Shown piece after piece: positions 7,186-23,829 of a stretch of DNA of 32,000 nucleotides. The position numbers and the translations under genes are program-made. The stretch spans positions 1,200,001-1,232,000 of the forward strand of contig NC_003364.1 in NCBI RefSeq assembly GCF_000007225.1. Direction: 5' to 3'. The stretch is from Pyrobaculum aerophilum str. IM2 (GTDB lineage: Archaea; Thermoproteota; Thermoprotei; Thermoproteales; Thermoproteaceae). The notes beneath the pieces were generated by a model. It had not been told where the DNA came from and made no database searches. It was given only the letters and a program-made list of their open reading frames with translations. The stretch's first letter is position 1; each line of letters starts with the position of its first letter.

Positions 7186-8043
7186 ATGGAGTTTGGGGTT
7201 TTTGACAATCACGCTCATGCCAACGAGTATAGCGGCTACGGAGCCGCCGAAGTTGTGCGTAGGTTTAAGGCGGCGGGGGGCGGGGGGATAATATTCGTCT
7301 CCCTCCTAACGTGGTCTATTGGGGGGAGGCCCGGGGACAAGGAGTGGGTGGTTAGGCTTTACGACCACACAGTGAGAAACGCGGAGGTGGCCCGGGGGGC
7401 CGGCCTGGTGTCGGGGGCCGTCGTGGGCGTCCACCCGGCGGAGTGTGTAAAACTGCTAGAGGCAGGGTGGACTCCCGGGGAGGTGGAGGAGTTTATGCGC
7501 TGGGCTGTGGACCTCGCGGCGAAGTATGTGGAGGAGGGGAGGGCGGTTGGGCTGGGGGAGTTCGGGAGGCCTCACTGGCCTGTGCCTAACAGCGTCGTGG
7601 AGCTGTGTAATAAAGTCACCCTGTACGTGTTGGAGAGGGCTAGGGATGTGGACGCCGCCGTTCATTTACACCTAGAGCGGGGCGGCACGGCCACTGTTGA
7701 CTCAATCGCCAAGCTCGCGGCGGAGGCCGGAGTGGATCCCAGGCGGGTGGTTATGCACCACATTGAGGGGGCTTTGGCGGGCTACGCCTATTCTAAAGGC
7801 CTATCCCCCTCAGTTCCCATGGGCCGGAGGGGGGAGTTTGAAGACGCGTTGAGGCACGGCCCCGTCTTTGTGGTGGAGAGCGACTATATAGACGACAAGT
7901 CTAGGCCGGGGGCTGTGATCCCCCCGTGGACTCTCGCCTCCAAGTTTAAACAGTATGTAGCCCGCGGCGTTCTCTCCGCCGATGATATGTACAAAATCTG
8001 CGTAGAGAACGTGAAGAGTATATACAAGTGGCGTCTGCTATAA
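7186..8043 (+). CDS. TatD-family metal-dependent hydrolase (amidohydrolase fold)
   Basis: 285-aa ORF with N-terminal FDNHAHANE (HxH metal motif), later HLHLERGG and HHIEG histidines, and a VVESDY acidic motif. TATA-like TTTTTATCTAAAT lies at about -25. Confidence 0.75.
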   Translation: MEFGVFDNHAHANEYSGYGAAEVVRRFKAAGGGGIIFVSLLTWSIGGRPGDKEWVVRLYDHTVRNAEVARGAGLVSGAVVGVHPAECVKLLEAGWTPGEVEEFMRWAVDLAAKYVEEGRAVGLGEFGRPHWPVPNSVVELCNKVTLYVLERARDVDAAVHLHLERGGTATVDSIAKLAAEAGVDPRRVVMHHIEGALAGYAYSKGLSPSVPMGRRGEFEDALRHGPVFVVESDYIDDKSRPGAVIPPWTLASKFKQYVARGVLSADDMYKICVENVKSIYKWRLL

Positions 8044-8161
8044 TAAACAATATATTCAAAATACAGATTACAATGAATTTTATATTTCTAAAACATAGTT
8101 TTAGATTATCAATATGCTAAAATCGAGAATTTTCAATAAAAAATTTACTTAAAATTTTGAT

Positions 8162-8812
8162 TTACCTTTGCCTTTTCTCTTTTATTAACATAAATATTAA
8201 TAATGACATTAATAATATACCAAATGTTAACTCATATATGTAATAATATGCGATAATATTAATTAATCGTAAAGCTATTGCACCTAGTATGAACCCATAA
8301 ATTGATGAAAAGTAAAATCCTATTACCCCACCTATTACAAGTAACGAAGAATAGGACCAAAAAGTGAGATCTGAAGTTACCGGTCAGATACGCAATTAGC
8401 ACACCTGAAACGCTTCCAAACAATGCCGAAATTATGTTCACTCTTAAGATAACTCTATCGGGTTCTATACCTAAAGCAGGTAGGCGCAATTCATTTTCCC
8501 TAAGACCAACGGCGTTCCAGAAAAGTGAACTGTTGATATATTTAATTCTAAATAGTAATGCAAAAGAAAAGTAACAAAAATAAAAATAAAATATTAAAAT
8601 TACCTCTCATACCAAATAATGTAAATGATGGTATAGAAATTCCATCAGAACCCCCTGTATAATAATACATTTTTACAAGAATTCCATATATGACCATTGA
8701 GATAAAGATGAGATTTTTGAAGGTATTGCACCTAAAATAGCTGATGAAATTAAAAAATAATTAAAGATGTAGTAAATAACAAGAAAACAACAGTAATTTT
8801 AGCTGAATCCAT
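8162..8812 (-). pseudogene. frameshifted and N-terminally truncated LivM-like branched-chain amino acid ABC permease
   Basis: LivM-type segments occur in three different reverse frames. These are MYYYTGGSDGISIPSFTLFGM, then FALLFRIKYINSSLFWNAVGLRENELRLPALGIEPDRVILRVNIISALFGSVSGVLIAYLTGNF, then LLVIGGVIGFYFSSIYGFILGAIALRLI...KEKRQR with a stop at 8162-8164. The sequence is very AT-rich. Confidence 0.6.
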
Positions 8813-8871
8813 AACAGTATATATAGAAGGTTTGTATGACAATATATATTTTATAGATAGGGGAAAAATAA

Positions 8872-9948
8872 TTAGAAAACAATGATTCCTCTTCCTAGGA
8901 TTTTTCCTTCTTTTAATTTATTAAAAGCTTTATTTACATCTTCTTCTGTAAATTTAAATCTTTCTGATATTACCTCTTTGTAATTAATTTTCTTCGCTAG
9001 CTTAATTACATTAATTTGATCAGCTAACGATCCTGTATATGTAGTTATTATAACTATTTCTTTTCTAATAAGTATTTGCGTAGGTATTGTTACTTCATGT
9101 CCCATTAAGCCGACAAGGTTATAAACTCCTTTTGTTGTAAGTATTTTGCTGTATATTGGCACAGTATTATTGTTTGAAACTAGGTCTATTACTGCTCTAA
9201 CACCTCTCCCCTTGGTTATCTCATTTAGAATTTCAATAGTGTTCGCGTTTACCTTAGTATATACTACATCTCGTACGATCTTTGATGCAAACTGTAGAGC
9301 CTCTTCTCTAATGTCTACCGCGATGATATTGGCCTCTGGCAAGAGTACCTTGGCCCATTGCACTGCGTATATACCTAAACCTCCAAGTCCTACTATTAAA
9401 ATATAATCATCAGGCCTTATATACTTCCGTATTTTCTTAACGGCGTTATATGTAGTTAGTCCAGCGCAACCAAGTGGTGCAATACTTTCTATTTCTTCAA
9501 AACCCTCTAATGGTATTACATACTTATAGTGAGGAACCACTATATACTCTTGGAGACCTCCTTCTATGTCAAATGCATATCTACGTCTCCTTGACGCAAG
9601 TTGTGTATACCCTTCTGCAACTATTTCATCGTTTTCATCCGCAGGTTGCCAAGCATAAACCAATACTGGTGTGCCTTCTCTCAGAGACTCTGGAACTAGT
9701 GAACCCTTTTTAGCAATAGTACCAACTATCTCATGTCCTACAATCCACGGCAAACTTTTAGGAAGACCTATTGACTTATAATCGCCTTGCCAAAGGTGTA
9801 GATCAGAATGACATATGCCCACAGATCTTGTCTTCACTAGTAGCCCGTAAGGCGGCACCTCTTCGGGTGTGGGCACTTCGTCTATTTTAAACGGACCTGC
9901 TATTTCGTAAAAGAAAGCCGCTTTATGGGTCTTTCTTATTCCGGTCAT
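8872..9948 (-). CDS. adh: zinc-dependent alcohol dehydrogenase (MDR family)
   Basis: Motifs are GICHSDLHLWQGDY, GHEIVGTI and the Rossmann loop IVGLGGLGIYAVQWAK. The start is placed at ATG 9948 (MTGIRKTHKAAFF), with TATA TTTTTAATTA 20-29 nt upstream (9968-9977); ATG 9960 is an alternative. The ORF-track extension to 10368 runs antisense into AOR and is an artefact. The coding sequence is only about 25-35 percent GC. Confidence 0.85.
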   Translation of the reverse strand: MTGIRKTHKAAFFYEIAGPFKIDEVPTPEEVPPYGLLVKTRSVGICHSDLHLWQGDYKSIGLPKSLPWIVGHEIVGTIAKKGSLVPESLREGTPVLVYAWQPADENDEIVAEGYTQLASRRRRYAFDIEGGLQEYIVVPHYKYVIPLEGFEEIESIAPLGCAGLTTYNAVKKIRKYIRPDDYILIVGLGGLGIYAVQWAKVLLPEANIIAVDIREEALQFASKIVRDVVYTKVNANTIEILNEITKGRGVRAVIDLVSNNNTVPIYSKILTTKGVYNLVGLMGHEVTIPTQILIRKEIVIITTYTGSLADQINVIKLAKKINYKEVISERFKFTEEDVNKAFNKLKEGKILGRGIIVF

Positions 9949-9967
9949 TAGTTGGATCATAAGATTG

Positions 9968-9977
9968 TAATTAAAAA
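9968..9977 (-). promoter_or_regulatory. TATA box of the adh gene
   Basis: Reverse-strand TTTTTAATTA lies 20-29 nt upstream of ATG 9948. Confidence 0.4.
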
Positions 9978-10030
9978 CATTATACTGAAAACGCGAAAAA
10001 CATAAAAATAAATTTAGATAATGCATCACT

Positions 10031-11833
10031 ATGCAAACGCTAAGAGGCCTAGTAATCGATTTATCTAAGCGCACAATTAAATCTCTTGAAAACGGCAGTA
10101 AGGCGGCCAGGCTTTTTATTGGAGGTCGAGGAGTTGCCACATATCTCTTTTGGAAATTCGGGGGGCACTTGGCGGATCCCCTCTCTGGCGAGGGCCCTCT
10201 TATATTCGCCGCGGGGCCTCTCACGGGGACTGGGATTCCCATGTCGGGCAGGGCCGCCGCGGTGTTCAGATCGCCTCTTACGGGCATCCTCGGGGCCTCT
10301 AACCTCGGGGGAAGGCTGGGCCCGGCGATGCGCTTCGCCGGCGTTGACGTTCTCGTCGTTGTGGGCAAGGCCGAGAGGCCTGTTTATTTAGTGGTGCAAG
10401 AGGGGAGGGTTGAGTTTAGAGACGCGTCTCATCTCTGGGGGAAAGACGCCATTGAGACTGAGGAGGTTTTGCTGAGAGAGCACGGCCGCAACTCCGCTGT
10501 TTTGACCATCGGCCCCGCGGGGGAGAACTTAGTGAGGTTCGCCTCTATTAATCACGATTTGTGGAGGCAGTTTGGGAGGACTGGGGGAGGCGCAGTGATG
10601 GGGGCGAAGAGGCTTAAGGCAGTTGTCTTCGTGCCGGAGAGGAGGGGCGTGGACGTGGCCATGCCTGAGAAACTCGCCGAGTTTCTCAAGAAGTTTGTGC
10701 CGTATTTTGTCGGGGAGAAGAGCGTGAAGGCCCTTTTCGAGGGGGGAACGCCGCGTTTAGTAGAAATCGCAAACCAAATGGGCTTTTTCCCCACGTATAA
10801 TTGGAGGCGCGTCTCTATGGACGGGTGGGAGAGAATTGCATGGCCTGCATTGAAGAGGGATTATTTCGTCAAGCCGGCCGCGTGTCTCCACTGCCCCGCG
10901 GCTTGCCACCGCCTTGTGAGGTCTAAGAAATACGGCGTTGACGTGGATATTGAGTACGAGACTATTTTCGCCCTGGGTGGCCTCACCGGTTGCGCCGACC
11001 CAGACGAGTTAATTAGGCTTAACGACTTGGCCGACAGGCTGGGAATGGACACAATTTCGCTGGGGGGCGTCTTGGCCTTTGCCATTGAGGCGGCTGAGGA
11101 GGGAAAGCTGAAGTTAGAGGCGGAGTGGGGCTGCGGGGGGCTGGCTAAATTAATAGAGGACATCGCTTATAGGAGGGGCGTTGGGGATATCCTCGCCGAC
11201 GGCGTCAAGGTAGCGGCGGAGAGACTCGGCGTTGGGGAGGCGGCGGTTCACGTGAGAGGCCTCGAGCCCGCCGGCTACGACCCCCGCGTCCTTAAGGGTA
11301 TGGCGCTTAACTACGCCATTGGGTACAGAGGAGCTGACCACTTGGCCACTATGGCCTACGCCATTGATATCGGCGGCTACGCCGGCGGCCCGCAGAGCTT
11401 GGGGGAGGAGAAGGTACGCGCCGTTGCCCATATGGAAGAGGCCTCCGCCGTTTTTGACTCCCTCGTCTTGTGTAAATTCGGGAGGGGGGTTTACGACATG
11501 TACCCAGGCGGAAGGGGGTTTGAAATAGCGGCAGAGCTCCTCACATATGTAACTGGCGAGGACTGGTCTGCGAAATCTCTGCGAGAGGCGGCGCTTAGAA
11601 TTATAAACTTGACAAGGGTTTTGAACTTAAAAATGGGCGCCGGACCTGACGGCTTGCCGGAGAGGTTCTTCAAGCCAGTCCGTTTTGAGGGGAGGGAGTA
11701 CGTTTTAACGCGGGGGGAGTTGGAGGCGGCTTTAAGGAGTTACTACGCGCTTAGGGGCTGGGACGAAGAGGGGAGGCCGAGGCCGGAGACTTTAAGGGAG
11801 TTGCAACTGGACTTCTTACTCTCACCGCCTTAA
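10031..11833 (+). CDS. aor: tungsten-containing aldehyde:ferredoxin oxidoreductase family protein
   Basis: 600-aa ORF with the AOR N-terminal domain (IDLSKRTI...GGRGVATYLFW). Cluster Cys ligands are in CLHCPAAC. GMDTISLG and GLEPAGYDPR-type motifs are present. Confidence 0.92.
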   Translation: MQTLRGLVIDLSKRTIKSLENGSKAARLFIGGRGVATYLFWKFGGHLADPLSGEGPLIFAAGPLTGTGIPMSGRAAAVFRSPLTGILGASNLGGRLGPAMRFAGVDVLVVVGKAERPVYLVVQEGRVEFRDASHLWGKDAIETEEVLLREHGRNSAVLTIGPAGENLVRFASINHDLWRQFGRTGGGAVMGAKRLKAVVFVPERRGVDVAMPEKLAEFLKKFVPYFVGEKSVKALFEGGTPRLVEIANQMGFFPTYNWRRVSMDGWERIAWPALKRDYFVKPAACLHCPAACHRLVRSKKYGVDVDIEYETIFALGGLTGCADPDELIRLNDLADRLGMDTISLGGVLAFAIEAAEEGKLKLEAEWGCGGLAKLIEDIAYRRGVGDILADGVKVAAERLGVGEAAVHVRGLEPAGYDPRVLKGMALNYAIGYRGADHLATMAYAIDIGGYAGGPQSLGEEKVRAVAHMEEASAVFDSLVLCKFGRGVYDMYPGGRGFEIAAELLTYVTGEDWSAKSLREAALRIINLTRVLNLKMGAGPDGLPERFFKPVRFEGREYVLTRGELEAALRSYYALRGWDEEGRPRPETLRELQLDFLLSPP

Positions 11834-18973: not shown

Positions 18974-19067
18974 GCCGCCGTAGCTCAGCCTGGAAGAGCG
19001 CTCTGGGGCTAGGCCCCGCGTAGGGCTCATAACCGGGTTGCCCCGGGTTCAAATCCCGGCGGCGGCA
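18974..19067 (+). tRNA. tRNA with CAT anticodon (elongator Met or Ile2) carrying a 20-nt intron at a non-canonical site (about 29/30)
   Basis: Acceptor GCCGCCG/CGGCGGC, D arm GCTC-AGCCTGGAA-GAGC, T arm CCGGG-TTCAAAT-CCCGG, discriminator A, no encoded CCA. The anticodon arm CTCGG-CTCATAA-CCGGG forms only after removing 19004-19023 (TGGGGCTAGGCCCCGCGTAG), which gives a 74-nt mature tRNA. Confidence 0.8.
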
Positions 19068-19075
19068 TTTTTATA

Positions 19076-19128
19076 GTGATGAAGGCGTCGGGACACTATA
19101 GAGGGGTGATAGCCACCTGGAGGGCTGA
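19076..19128 (+). ncRNA. candidate C/D-box sRNA immediately 3' of the tRNA(CAT) gene
   Basis: Hand parse: C GTGATGA | 12 nt AGGCGTCGGGAC | D' ACTA (weak) | TAGAGGG | C' GTGATAG | 12 nt CCACCTGGAGGG | D CTGA. It starts 9 nt after the tRNA discriminator base. The ORF-track 69-aa ORF starting at 19076 simply begins on the C box. Confidence 0.6.
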
Positions 19129-21737: not shown

Positions 21738-22154
21738 ATGATAAGAACTTCAGAGCTTTTAAAAAGGCCCCCCGTCTCCCTGCCTGAGACTGCGACGATA
21801 AGAGAAGTGGCCACCGAGTTGGCTAAAAACAGAGTGGGGCTGGCGGTGCTCACCGCCAGGGATAATCCCAAAAGGCCAGTTGCCGTCGTTTCTGAGAGGG
21901 ACATCCTCAGGGCGGTGGCCCAGAGGCTTGACCTCGACGGGCCGGCAATGCCAATTGCCAATTCGCCTATTACGGTGCTGGACACAGACCCCGTACACGT
22001 AGCGGCGGAGAAAATGAGGCGGCACAATATTAGGCACGTCGTGGTTGTGAATAAAAACGGAGAGCTAGTGGGGGTGTTGTCTATACGAGATCTCTGTTTT
22101 GAAAGAGCCATATTACTGGAGCTGGCAACCGCCGAGGTGCCCGCCACGCCGTGA
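21738..22154 (+). CDS. CBS domain pair protein
   Basis: 138-aa ORF with two CBS repeats (VGLAVL...[11 protein letters not shown] and [22 protein letters not shown]). Its stop overlaps the next gene's start (GTGA at 22151-22154). Confidence 0.85.
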
Positions 22155-22960
22155 TAGTGGAAAAACCCTGTAGAGTAGTTGCAGTAGTCTCCGGAGGCCC
22201 CGACAGCACTTGCTACACGGCGCTGTGGCTGAAGAGAGGGTGCGACGTCCACGCCCTCTCTTTTTTGTACGGCCAGAAGGCAGTAGTGGAGGTGGAGAGG
22301 GCGCAACTCTTATTGCGGAGGCTAGACGGCATAGCGGCAGAGAGGGGGTGGGGGCGCGTAGTGGAGCACAGAGTAGTTGATTTGTCGTCGCTGGGAGAGC
22401 TCTGGCGGGGCACTCAGCTGACAGACCCGTCGGTCTCCGTGGAACAGAGCTACACCCCCACGGTAGTCGTGCCGATTAGAAATGTAGTCATGGCGGCGGT
22501 GGCCACGGCATATGCGTACACCGTGGGGAGAAACGCCGGGGCGAAAACGTACGTAATCCTGGGATCTCACTACGACGACATTAAGCCAAGAGAGGACACG
22601 TGGGAGCCGCTATACCCAGACTGCTCGCCGGAATGCGTAGAGGCCATGCAGACTGCTTTTAGAATTTGCCACTTCAGGGGGGAGAGAGGCGTGGAGATTT
22701 GGACCCCGTCGAGAGAGGGGCTTAGGAAGTCGCAACTATTAAAAATGTGCCACCAAGAGGTTGGCGATTTAATTTACGACACGTGGTCGTGTTATAAATC
22801 GGGAGAGGCGCACTGCGGCTCGTGTGAGAGTTGTAAAAACCGCCACGCGGCGTTTATAGAGGCGGGGTTGCCGGATTGCACTGCTTATTTAACGCCTCCG
22901 GGCCCTGGCTTTGAAAAACGCGGACAGTTTTATTTACACATTAGTTGTAAAAAACAGTGA
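22151..22960 (+). CDS. queC: 7-cyano-7-deazaguanine synthase (QueC-like PP-loop ATPase; archaeosine precursor pathway)
   Basis: PP-loop [11 protein letters not shown] and the C-terminal Zn cluster [21 protein letters not shown] start coupled to the CBS gene. Confidence 0.8.
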
Positions 22961-23005
22961 TGACCTCTTCGCTGCGCGGATTAATGACCAATCCGGCGGA
23001 GCTGA
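22957..23005 (+). ncRNA. candidate C/D-box sRNA starting on the queC stop codon
   Basis: Hand parse (49 nt): C GTGATGA (contains stop TGA 22958-22960) | 12 nt CCTCTTCGCTGC | D' GCGG/CGGA | ATT | C' AATGACC (weak) | 12 nt AATCCGGCGGAG | D CTGA (23002-23005). Confidence 0.45.
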
Positions 23006-23007
23006 CG

Positions 23008-23056
23008 TCAGCCAATCAAGCCTTCGCCATCTATCCGCCGTTCCCACGTTCATCAC
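23008..23056 (-). ncRNA. candidate C/D-box sRNA starting on the C-N hydrolase stop codon
   Basis: Hand parse on the reverse strand (49 nt): C GTGATGA (contains stop TGA 23055-23053) | 12 nt ACGTGGGAACGG | D' CGGA | TAG | C' ATGGCGA | 12 nt AGGCTTGATTGG | D CTGA (23011-23008). Confidence 0.6.
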
Positions 23057-23829
23057 GTACAGAGCCTTTTGTATAGACTAGGCCTCCTTAAATTTAAAGC
23101 CGGCACTGTCCTCCTGGCCTCGTCTACGAGAGAGGGATCTATGGTCACCACGCGGTATTTAGACCCCACGCCGAGATCCGCCTCCACAACGCCGAAGGGG
23201 TTTACTACTAGCGAGCGGCCGGTGAAGCGCTGGCTGTACAACGCCGCAACGGCTATGAATACGCCGTTTTCCACAGCCCTGGCCCTCGCCAAGACGTGCA
23301 GTATCTCTTCTTTTAAAGGCCCTGAGTACCAAGCGGCGGGGACTGCCACTAGCTGGGCCCCTCCCAGCGCGAGTTCTCTGAATACCTCTGGAAATCTCAG
23401 CTCAAAACACACGGCAAAGCCGATTTTAATCTGCCTCACGTCGAAAATCCCCGAGAGCTCCCCGCCAGGCTCTACCGCCTCGGACTCCTTATAGCCATAG
23501 GCGTCGAAGAGGTGAGTCTTGCGATATGTCCCGACGGCTTTGCCCGCGGGGCTTACTAACACGGTGGTGTTGAACACCTTAGGCCGCGGCCCCCTCTCTA
23601 AAAACCCGCCTGCCACATACGCCCCCGTCTCCGCGGCAATTTTAGCTAGACCCTCGACGAAGTCCTCAAGCGCAGTTGTCCGCTCCCACACTTCCTCAGG
23701 CTTTAAACCAGTGGGATCGAAGAGGGAGTACTCGGGGAGTAGTATCAAGTCTGCCTTGCTCCCCGCAACCATTTTCACCACCTCGGAGAGGGGGCCGGGG
23801 GATTTCTGCACCAAGCCCAACCTGAACAT
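23053..23829 (-). CDS. carbon-nitrogen hydrolase (nitrilase superfamily; Nit/omega-amidase-like)
   Basis: 258-aa ORF with the Glu-Lys-Cys triad contexts LILLPEYS, YRKTHLFD and GFAVCFELRFPE. Confidence 0.88.
   Translation of the reverse strand: MFRLGLVQKSPGPLSEVVKMVAGSKADLILLPEYSLFDPTGLKPEEVWERTTALEDFVEGLAKIAAETGAYVAGGFLERGPRPKVFNTTVLVSPAGKAVGTYRKTHLFDAYGYKESEAVEPGGELSGIFDVRQIKIGFAVCFELRFPEVFRELALGGAQLVAVPAAWYSGPLKEEILHVLARARAVENGVFIAVAALYSQRFTGRSLVVNPFGVVEADLGVGSKYRVVTIDPSLVDEARRTVPALNLRRPSLYKRLCT

Follow-up and report, generated by a model that had tools for sequence, protein, structure and literature searches.

A convergent pair of box C/D sRNA genes, predicted to guide four 23S rRNA methylations, in the gap between queC and a nitrilase-family gene of Pyrobaculum aerophilum

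The box C/D small RNA (sRNA) genes of Pyrobaculum habitually sit on the 3' ends of protein-coding genes, and 23 cases have been described in which an upstream gene takes its stop codon from the RUGAUGA C box of the sRNA (Lui et al. 2018, PMC6009581). Convergent sRNA genes are known from the same catalogue: sR34 and sR40 face each other at a distance of 16 nucleotides (nt) in P. arsenaticum and P. oguniense, and the members of the P. aerophilum pair sR113a/sR08 lie 1 base pair (bp) apart, which the authors call 'a highly unusual arrangement' in their section 'Duplication of sRNAs' and for which they remark on possible transcriptional interference. Reads were reported for both sR113a and sR08, as for 99% of the catalogued sRNAs. 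Here we analyse a 32,000-nt stretch of the P. aerophilum str. IM2 genome (NC_003364.1, positions 1,200,001 to 1,232,000; hereafter the window, to whose first letter all positions refer), in which the gap between the convergent genes queC and PAE2075 consists, very probably, of two separate convergent box C/D sRNA genes that would aim four methylations at 23S ribosomal RNA (rRNA). Such a pair had been proposed in an earlier reading made from the letters alone (the sequence-only reading), whose statement that Pyrobaculum sRNAs have been reported to overlap the 3' ends of coding genes agrees with the published catalogue.

On the plus strand, queC (7-cyano-7-deazaguanine synthase) runs from 22151 to 22960 and ends with the TGA at 22958-22960, its last codons lying upstream of the plus-strand sRNA. 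On the minus strand, PAE2075 (a carbon-nitrogen hydrolase of the nitrilase family) occupies 23053-23829, with its stop codon (23055-23053) inside the C box of the minus-strand sRNA. The two proteins encoded in the window are identical to AAL63927.1 and AAL63928.1 ('nitrilase, conjectural'), respectively. The 92 nt between them (22961-23052) had been read as two 49-nt units with matching box geometry, one on each strand and each with the stop codon of the upstream gene in its C box, and our coordinates confirm both statements. The plus-strand gene (22957-23005) is made up of the C box GTGATGA (22957-22963), the D' guide CCTCTTCGCTGC(G) (22964-22976), the D' box CGGA (22977-22980), the linker TTA, the C' box ATGACCA (22984-22990), the D guide ATCCGGCGGAG (22991-23001) and the D box CTGA (23002-23005). 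The minus-strand gene (23008-23056) has the same order, with the C box GTGATGA (23050-23056), the D' guide ACGTGGGAACGG (23038-23049), the D' box CGGA (23034-23037), the linker TAG, the C' box ATGGCGA (23024-23030), the D guide AGGCTTGATTGG (23012-23023) and the D box CTGA (23008-23011).

In both units the stop codon makes up positions 2-4 of the C box and 38 nt separate the C box from the D box, the guide spacers measuring 13 and 11 nt in the plus unit and 12 and 12 nt in the minus unit. The terminal boxes thus stand as they were first called, but two internal assignments in the plus unit had to be revised: ATGACCA fits the C' consensus RUGAUGA better than the proposed AATGACC, and of the two D' boxes considered, GCGG and CGGA, the latter is the better one (orthologues have CGGA or AGGA, against a CUGA consensus), which gives the C-to-D' spacer its 13 nt. 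The two units are identical at 20 of 49 positions, essentially the boxes, so the earlier view that this is not an inverted duplication holds; the only match returned by an inverted-repeat search was one of 75% between the box-bearing centres. The geometry itself is rare: the pattern RTGATGA-N36-42-CTGA was matched three times in the window, compared to 0.04 matches expected and a maximum of one in 300 first-order Markov simulations, a 75-fold enrichment. The three matches are the plus unit, the minus unit and a third sRNA at 19076-19128 that is described further below.

The minus unit belongs, as its P. aerophilum member, to the published sR09 family, one of the families 1-65 that were numbered after the original P. 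aerophilum annotation (PMC6009581). It is identical at 38 of 49 positions to PCAsR09 of P. calidifontis, an RNA detected by RNA-seq (GTGATGAGCATGGGAACGGCGTATGTGTGAAGAGGGCTTGATTAACTGA; supplementary sRNA table of Dennis et al. 2015, PMC4644070), with which it shares its length, all box positions and near-identical guides, including the D' core TGGGAACGG and the D core GGCTTGATT. To place the targets, the 16S and 23S rRNAs of P. calidifontis and Thermoproteus tenax were rebuilt from published alignments and the E. coli numbering was checked on G745; N+5 denotes the nucleotide of the rRNA that pairs with the guide's fifth position, counted upstream from the D' or D box. The D' guide forms 11 consecutive pairs, nine Watson-Crick and two G-U, with UCGUUCCCAUG, which lies inside the 12-nt stretch UCGUUCCCAUGA (P. 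calidifontis 23S 879-890), and its N+5 nucleotide is U883 (E. coli 757). For the D guide there are 11 contiguous Watson-Crick pairs with CCAAUCAAGCC (912-922), the N+5 nucleotide being the U of CCAAU, numbered 916 in the P. calidifontis row of the alignment and equivalent to E. coli U790. Both targets are shared with the family: the 23S alignment in PMC4644070 carries the mark 'P9' over both stretches, and the U targeted by the D guide agrees with the U912 published for sR09 (PMC6009581).

The P. aerophilum copy differs from that of P. calidifontis in its C' box (ATGGCGA versus GTGAAGA), in a G of the D' guide where P. calidifontis has an A (a G-U rather than an A-U pair on P. calidifontis rRNA) and in its location, since P. 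calidifontis sR09 is found at another locus (1.42 Mb) that does not adjoin the hydrolase gene. Its RNA has also been seen experimentally: Bernick et al. 2012 (PMC3388794), who list PAE2075 as the nitrilase-family gene, flagged it for a sense-oriented sRNA resembling small nucleolar RNAs at its 3' end, with 49 sense and 0 antisense reads (Table A2), and the P. islandicum orthologue Pisl_1857 was flagged likewise. The acyl-CoA dehydrogenase gene of the same study, PAE2070, lies two genes upstream of queC in the gene order of the window.

The plus unit, as judged from its sequence, is a genuine box C/D sRNA gene encoding a presumably expressed dual guide to 23S rRNA. Its D' guide is Watson-Crick complementary at 12 of 12 positions to GCAGCGAAGAGG (P. 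calidifontis 23S 1404-1415; T. tenax 1407-1418), with G1407 as the N+5 nucleotide, or, for a box placed 1 nt further upstream, C1408 (E. coli 1271/1272). The D guide matches at 10 of 12 positions, forming 10 contiguous Watson-Crick pairs with CUCCGCCGGA (P. calidifontis 23S 1428-1437), and its N+5 nucleotide is G1432 (E. coli G1296). The two sites are 24 nt apart, are identical in T. tenax and flank one small hairpin of the 23S rRNA (GAGGGG-UGAGAAG-CCCCUC). An RNA with the same pair of guides is known from a distant lineage: the RNA-seq-verified sR25 of Ignicoccus hospitalis (PMC4644070, Additional file 1) is a dual guide to both stretches (GCAGCGAAGAGG-like and CUCCGCCGGA) and shares the methylated G in CUCCG, but its D' and D guides are swapped and its box sequences and genomic context are different. 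These differences speak for rearranged modules or for convergence, and not for orthology. The published 23S alignment marks neither a P. calidifontis nor a T. tenax sRNA over the two sites (PMC4644070), which for P. calidifontis fits the absence of the plus unit from its queC locus.

All four N+5 pairs are Watson-Crick, and no more than 35 nt of 23S rRNA separate the two targets of either RNA. Taken singly, with G-U pairs allowed, the guides are moderately significant (0, 9, 11 and 1 of 300 shuffled guides reached the observed scores), and in a joint test, which was decisive and required both guides of one RNA to attain their scores no more than 100 nt apart on a single rRNA, none of 3000 shuffled guide pairs was as good for either unit. 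The search of the guides against rRNA that the sequence-only reading had suggested therefore yielded a complement for each of the four (12, 10 and 11 Watson-Crick pairs in three of them, and 9 Watson-Crick plus 2 G-U pairs in the fourth, where 8-9 bp is the minimum for a guide of this class), and its central proposal, that both units are box C/D sRNA genes, is one on which geometry, guide-target matches, conservation and sR09 homology agree.

Orthologous loci were fetched via QueC, via a DNA pattern in metagenomes and via the hydrolase, and we use the handles of the loci (L007 and so on) to tell lineages apart. Six contigs, from metagenome-assembled genomes and metagenome assemblies, encode an identical QueC and have an identical intergenic sequence too. 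Four further lineages carry an intact plus unit (L009/L032, L022, L026 and L031, the last being Pyrobaculum sp. 3827-6). Across the five intact lineages neither the C box nor the D guide TCCGGCGGAG varies and the D' guide differs at a single 5' base, in L031, the C' box reads RTGACCA in four lineages and GTGACAA in L031, and the D box reads CTGA in four and CTGG in L031. The D'-C' linker, on the other hand, is free (TTA, TCT, TCCG, TCAG and GCG), and the protein identity of queC falls to about 80% across the same lineages. It had been expected that the boxes would be kept and the guides would vary; what we observed is that boxes and guides are kept and the linkers vary, in line with the fixed rRNA target, which holds the guides of orthologous RNAs constant. 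When metagenomes were scanned for the plus unit, an additional orthologous locus (L026) and a false positive within a bacterial gene (L027) came up, and no paralogue of the sR113b type.

Both units have also been lost in places, the boxes being the first parts to disappear from decaying copies. In the WP30-like lineage (L007, L008, L024 and L034) the plus unit has decayed to GGTAATA-CCTCCTTGCGGGG...CCGA, with deletions and loss of the C and D boxes, the C box reading GTAATA or GTAA. The minus unit is intact in eight cases (P. aerophilum, L031, L022, L026, L008, L007/L034, L024 and, at its other locus, P. calidifontis), with CAGA, CCGA or CGTA as the D' box of orthologues and GTGAAGA as the C' box of most relatives. 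In L009/L032 its C box is gone, as are 4 nt of guide, and in P. neutrophilum a decayed remnant lies within the 3' end of the hydrolase gene, a pattern that fits the 'five members' statement of Lui et al. (PMC6009581). There is no sRNA at the queC-hydrolase locus of P. calidifontis, L011/L033 or P. oguniense. A separate observation concerns the D guide of sR09, which in L022, L026, L007, L008, L024 and L034 reads CGGCATGATTAG and not (A/G)GGCTTGATT(GG/AG/AA), so that two mismatches arise within the duplex with the P. calidifontis 23S site. Either the rRNA of these lineages differs, or the guide is drifting toward a weaker or different target.

The full symmetry of the pair, which the sequence-only reading had stressed, is present in P. 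aerophilum but is lineage-specific, as the hydrolase gene of L031 reads through the C box and queC of L009 terminates 22 nt short of the plus C box. The hydrolase reading frame of L031 (1501-2316 of that locus) crosses the sR09 C box in another frame (TGT GAT GAA), continues for 13 codons and stops at a TGA inside the D guide (GCT TGA), giving a protein of 271 instead of 258 amino acids, so that most of the L031 sR09 gene is also coding.

How does the pair relate to what has been published? We think it probable that it is the sR113a/sR08 pair of Lui et al. (PMC6009581), the plus unit then being sR113a. Both are pairs of nearly touching convergent box C/D genes of P. aerophilum in which one member has an old number (<=65) and the other a new one (>=100), and a second pair of this kind in a curated genome would surely have been noted alongside the first; the difference is that the published text names sR08 and a distance of 1 bp, whereas we find an sR09 homologue and 2 bp. 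Accordingly, we think it unlikely that the published P. aerophilum catalogue lacks the plus RNA. The PAE3005/sR113b locus is listed with 177 antisense reads (PMC3388794). Compared to the sR34/sR40 pairs and the stop-codon C boxes, which make both convergent pairing and stop-codon overlap known features (PMC6009581), the locus described here differs in that both members of the pair supply stop codons and together fill the whole gap, an arrangement that is not kept in relatives. The sRNA family, the stop-codon overlap, the convergent pairing and the rRNA sites are thus already known from the literature, and most probably this very pair is as well.

From the anatomy, the guide-target complementarity and the pattern of conservation and decay, all of which we observed directly, we infer the following course of events. 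Each RNA, of about 49-55 nt, would fold its terminal C and D boxes into a kink-turn and its internal D' and C' boxes into a weaker K-loop, which would bind L7Ae, Nop5 and the methyltransferase fibrillarin into a ribonucleoprotein (RNP). The two guides of about 12 nt would then pair with two nearby stretches of 23S rRNA, and a 2'-O-methyl group would be placed on the N+5 nucleotides, that is U883 and U916 for the minus RNA (P. calidifontis numbering; E. coli 757 and 790, in domain II) and G1407 (or C1408) and G1432 for the plus RNA (E. coli 1271/1272 and 1296). The guides of the plus RNA may in addition clamp both flanks of the small hairpin, as would be expected of a dual guide that aids local rRNA folding.

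The sRNAs could be made from TATA-like elements within the last codons of queC and PAE2075 or be excised from the 3' ends of the mRNAs; embedded promoters and mRNA excision are both discussed by Lui et al. for sRNAs overlapping gene ends (PMC6009581). On the plus strand, the TATA-like TTTTATTTA (22928-22936), in the Q-F-Y-L codons of queC and centred about 25 nt upstream of the plus C box, is possibly such an embedded promoter. Relatives have TTTTATAT at this position, including lineages in which the plus unit has decayed, and therefore protein coding alone could explain it. On the minus side, five loci (L007, L008, L024, L026 and L034) carry a perfect archaeal TATA-like TTTATAAA in the 3' codons of the hydrolase gene, about 23-30 nt upstream of the minus C box. 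A 12-nt deletion in P. aerophilum puts the equivalent TATACAAAA (23064-23075) within 11 nt of the minus C box, too close for a promoter of this kind, so the expression route of sR09 may differ between species. The 3' ends of both sRNAs would be set through protection in the assembled RNP, the palindrome between the two genes playing no role.

This palindrome, CTGACGTCAG (23002-23011), consists of the two D boxes and the 2-nt spacer CG between them (23006-23007), and the sequence-only reading saw in it a shared terminator-like element that suggested coupled 3'-end formation or mutual termination. Any two touching convergent D boxes automatically produce a palindrome, and CTGACGTCAG exists because CTGA and its complement TCAG sit 2 nt apart; it is a by-product of neighbouring D boxes and not a terminator. 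At best it forms a 4-bp stem with a 2-nt loop (-5.4 kcal/mol, z -0.41), which is no better than shuffled sequences, no T run follows it, and when each unit, both strands of the 100-nt block and the palindrome were folded, the z values ranged from -0.4 to -1.9, so that no structure stands out from chance. The D boxes are separated by 0 nt in L009/L032 (CTGATCAG) and L031 (CTGGTCAG), 2 nt in P. aerophilum, 41 nt in L026 and 47 nt in L022, and at both of the long distances the two units are intact. An intrinsic or bidirectional terminator at this position finds no support, as there is no stable hairpin, T run or conservation, and a CRE-like or restriction-site element was rejected for lack of conservation. 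A local hairpin within the plus unit was also considered: at 22977-22995 on the plus strand the D' box and linker (CGGAUU) match the first bases of the D guide (AAUCCG) as a perfect complement, and the 7-nt loop contains the C' box. It was discarded as a conserved element, since this 6-bp stem is not kept in relatives, in which CGGA/UCCG alone remains.

A functional role for the abutting D boxes and their palindrome, be it as a bidirectional terminator or as a module through which 3'-end formation or RNP assembly of each gene stops transcription coming from the opposite side, would agree with the lack of a T-rich terminator between the units, with the spacing of 0-2 nt in three lineages and with the 0 antisense reads at the 3' end of PAE2075 (PMC3388794), which suggest that plus-strand transcripts reading into the minus gene are unstable. 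We nevertheless consider it improbable, as neither the sequence (CTGACGTCAG, CTGATCAG, CTGGTCAG) nor the spacing is conserved, the D boxes lying 41 and 47 nt apart in two lineages with both units intact, and as the units also occur solo: P. calidifontis has sR09 at a different genomic site, and WP30 has the minus unit by itself. The two sRNA genes may interfere with each other's transcription. A related idea is that the nearly touching layout acts as a mutual transcription roadblock, in which an RNP assembled on the nascent RNA once its D box has emerged would halt the opposing polymerase; if true, the roadblock would replace a terminator and tie the levels of both RNAs together. Even when this idea is taken together with the other remaining one, that the plus RNA is uncatalogued and sR113a/sR08 lies elsewhere, we regard the two as unlikely.

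Several observations weigh against reading the gap as two working guide RNA genes. The plus unit is dispensable in several Pyrobaculum lineages. The internal boxes are degenerate in both units (CGGA/ATGACCA in plus, CGGA/ATGGCGA in minus); the minus C' box is without the second A of the G-A tandem, and the D' and C' boxes are correctly positioned, as they also are in relatives. K-loops are variable in Pyrobaculum (PMC6009581). The guide targets were scored on P. calidifontis and T. tenax rRNA in place of that of P. aerophilum, and on the P. calidifontis rRNA two G-U pairs occur in the minus D' duplex. Neither unit has an Rfam match at the gathering score, the best sub-threshold match being sR2 for the minus unit (21.8 bits versus a gathering score of 42). 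Across the whole window Rfam release 15 recovered three tRNAs at the gathering score and none of the three box C/D sRNAs, and the Pyrobaculum sRNA families seem not to be represented in that release. A model that we built from the sequences of ten P. calidifontis sRNAs gave both units 5.6 bits (E = 1.7, ranks 3rd-4th), which is no discrimination; the thresholds of the Lowe-lab Pyrobaculum model are 13-17 bits. Both failures agree with the remark of Lui et al. 2018 (PMC6009581) that automated detection of Pyrobaculum C/D genes is unreliable without a curated structural model.

An alternative is that sR09 is the sole working gene and the plus unit a relic or an unexpressed look-alike that happens to survive in P. 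aerophilum. The plus unit has decayed in L007, L008, L024 and L034 and is missing from the queC-hydrolase gap of P. calidifontis, P. neutrophilum and P. oguniense, it has poor C' and D' boxes, L031 has CTGG for a D box, and the targets of the plus unit have no annotated P. calidifontis or T. tenax sRNA. We find this explanation very unlikely given that the C and D boxes of the plus unit are perfect, that its guides are invariant in five lineages in which the linker is free and queC has diverged to about 80% protein identity, that its two guides match adjacent 23S sites as none of 3000 shuffled pairs did, and that an expressed Ignicoccus sRNA uses the same sites. Reads were moreover found for 99% of the catalogued sRNAs, which would include the plus unit if it is sR113a (PMC6009581). 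A further explanation, that there is no RNA gene here and that TGATGA is a tandem stop followed by a chance CTGA, draws on the plausibility of such a double stop and on the generic models, which do not part the units from background, but it is refuted by the geometry statistics, the four guide-target matches, the RNA-seq-verified homologue, the published reads and the conservation, and we give it practically no weight.

Two other features of the window deserve mention. The third box C/D sRNA, on the plus strand at 19076-19128, reads GTGATGA AGGCGTCGGGAC ACTA ... GTGATAG CCACCTGGAGGG CTGA, and its D guide complements P. calidifontis 23S 2148-2157 with C2151 as the N+5 nucleotide. It starts 8 nt past an intron-containing tRNA gene (18974-19067), which ARAGORN calls Pro(agg) and whose CTCATAA loop looks like that of a tRNA-Met (CAU); the two together resemble the sR44-tRNA-Met dicistron described by Lui et al. 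2018 (PMC6009581). In the first half of the window, 8001-10000 is a sharp low-G+C island (27% and 39%, versus about 55% elsewhere) that spans an AT-rich part at about 8050-8870 and the body of an open reading frame resembling zinc-type alcohol dehydrogenases (within 8872-10368, minus strand), and is possibly horizontally acquired DNA.

Our findings leave the current understanding of Pyrobaculum sRNAs unchanged, and they illustrate that the reading of raw sequence alone can recover real archaeal guide RNA genes. The symmetry of the pair, striking as it is, has no conserved function. What the pair does show is how tightly Pyrobaculum genomes are packed, with stop codons placed in C boxes and no intergenic DNA left over, and the comparative series, leading from an intact pair to loci with one partner decayed and finally to loci from which both are gone, amounts to a natural experiment, on a small scale, in how guide RNAs arise and are lost.

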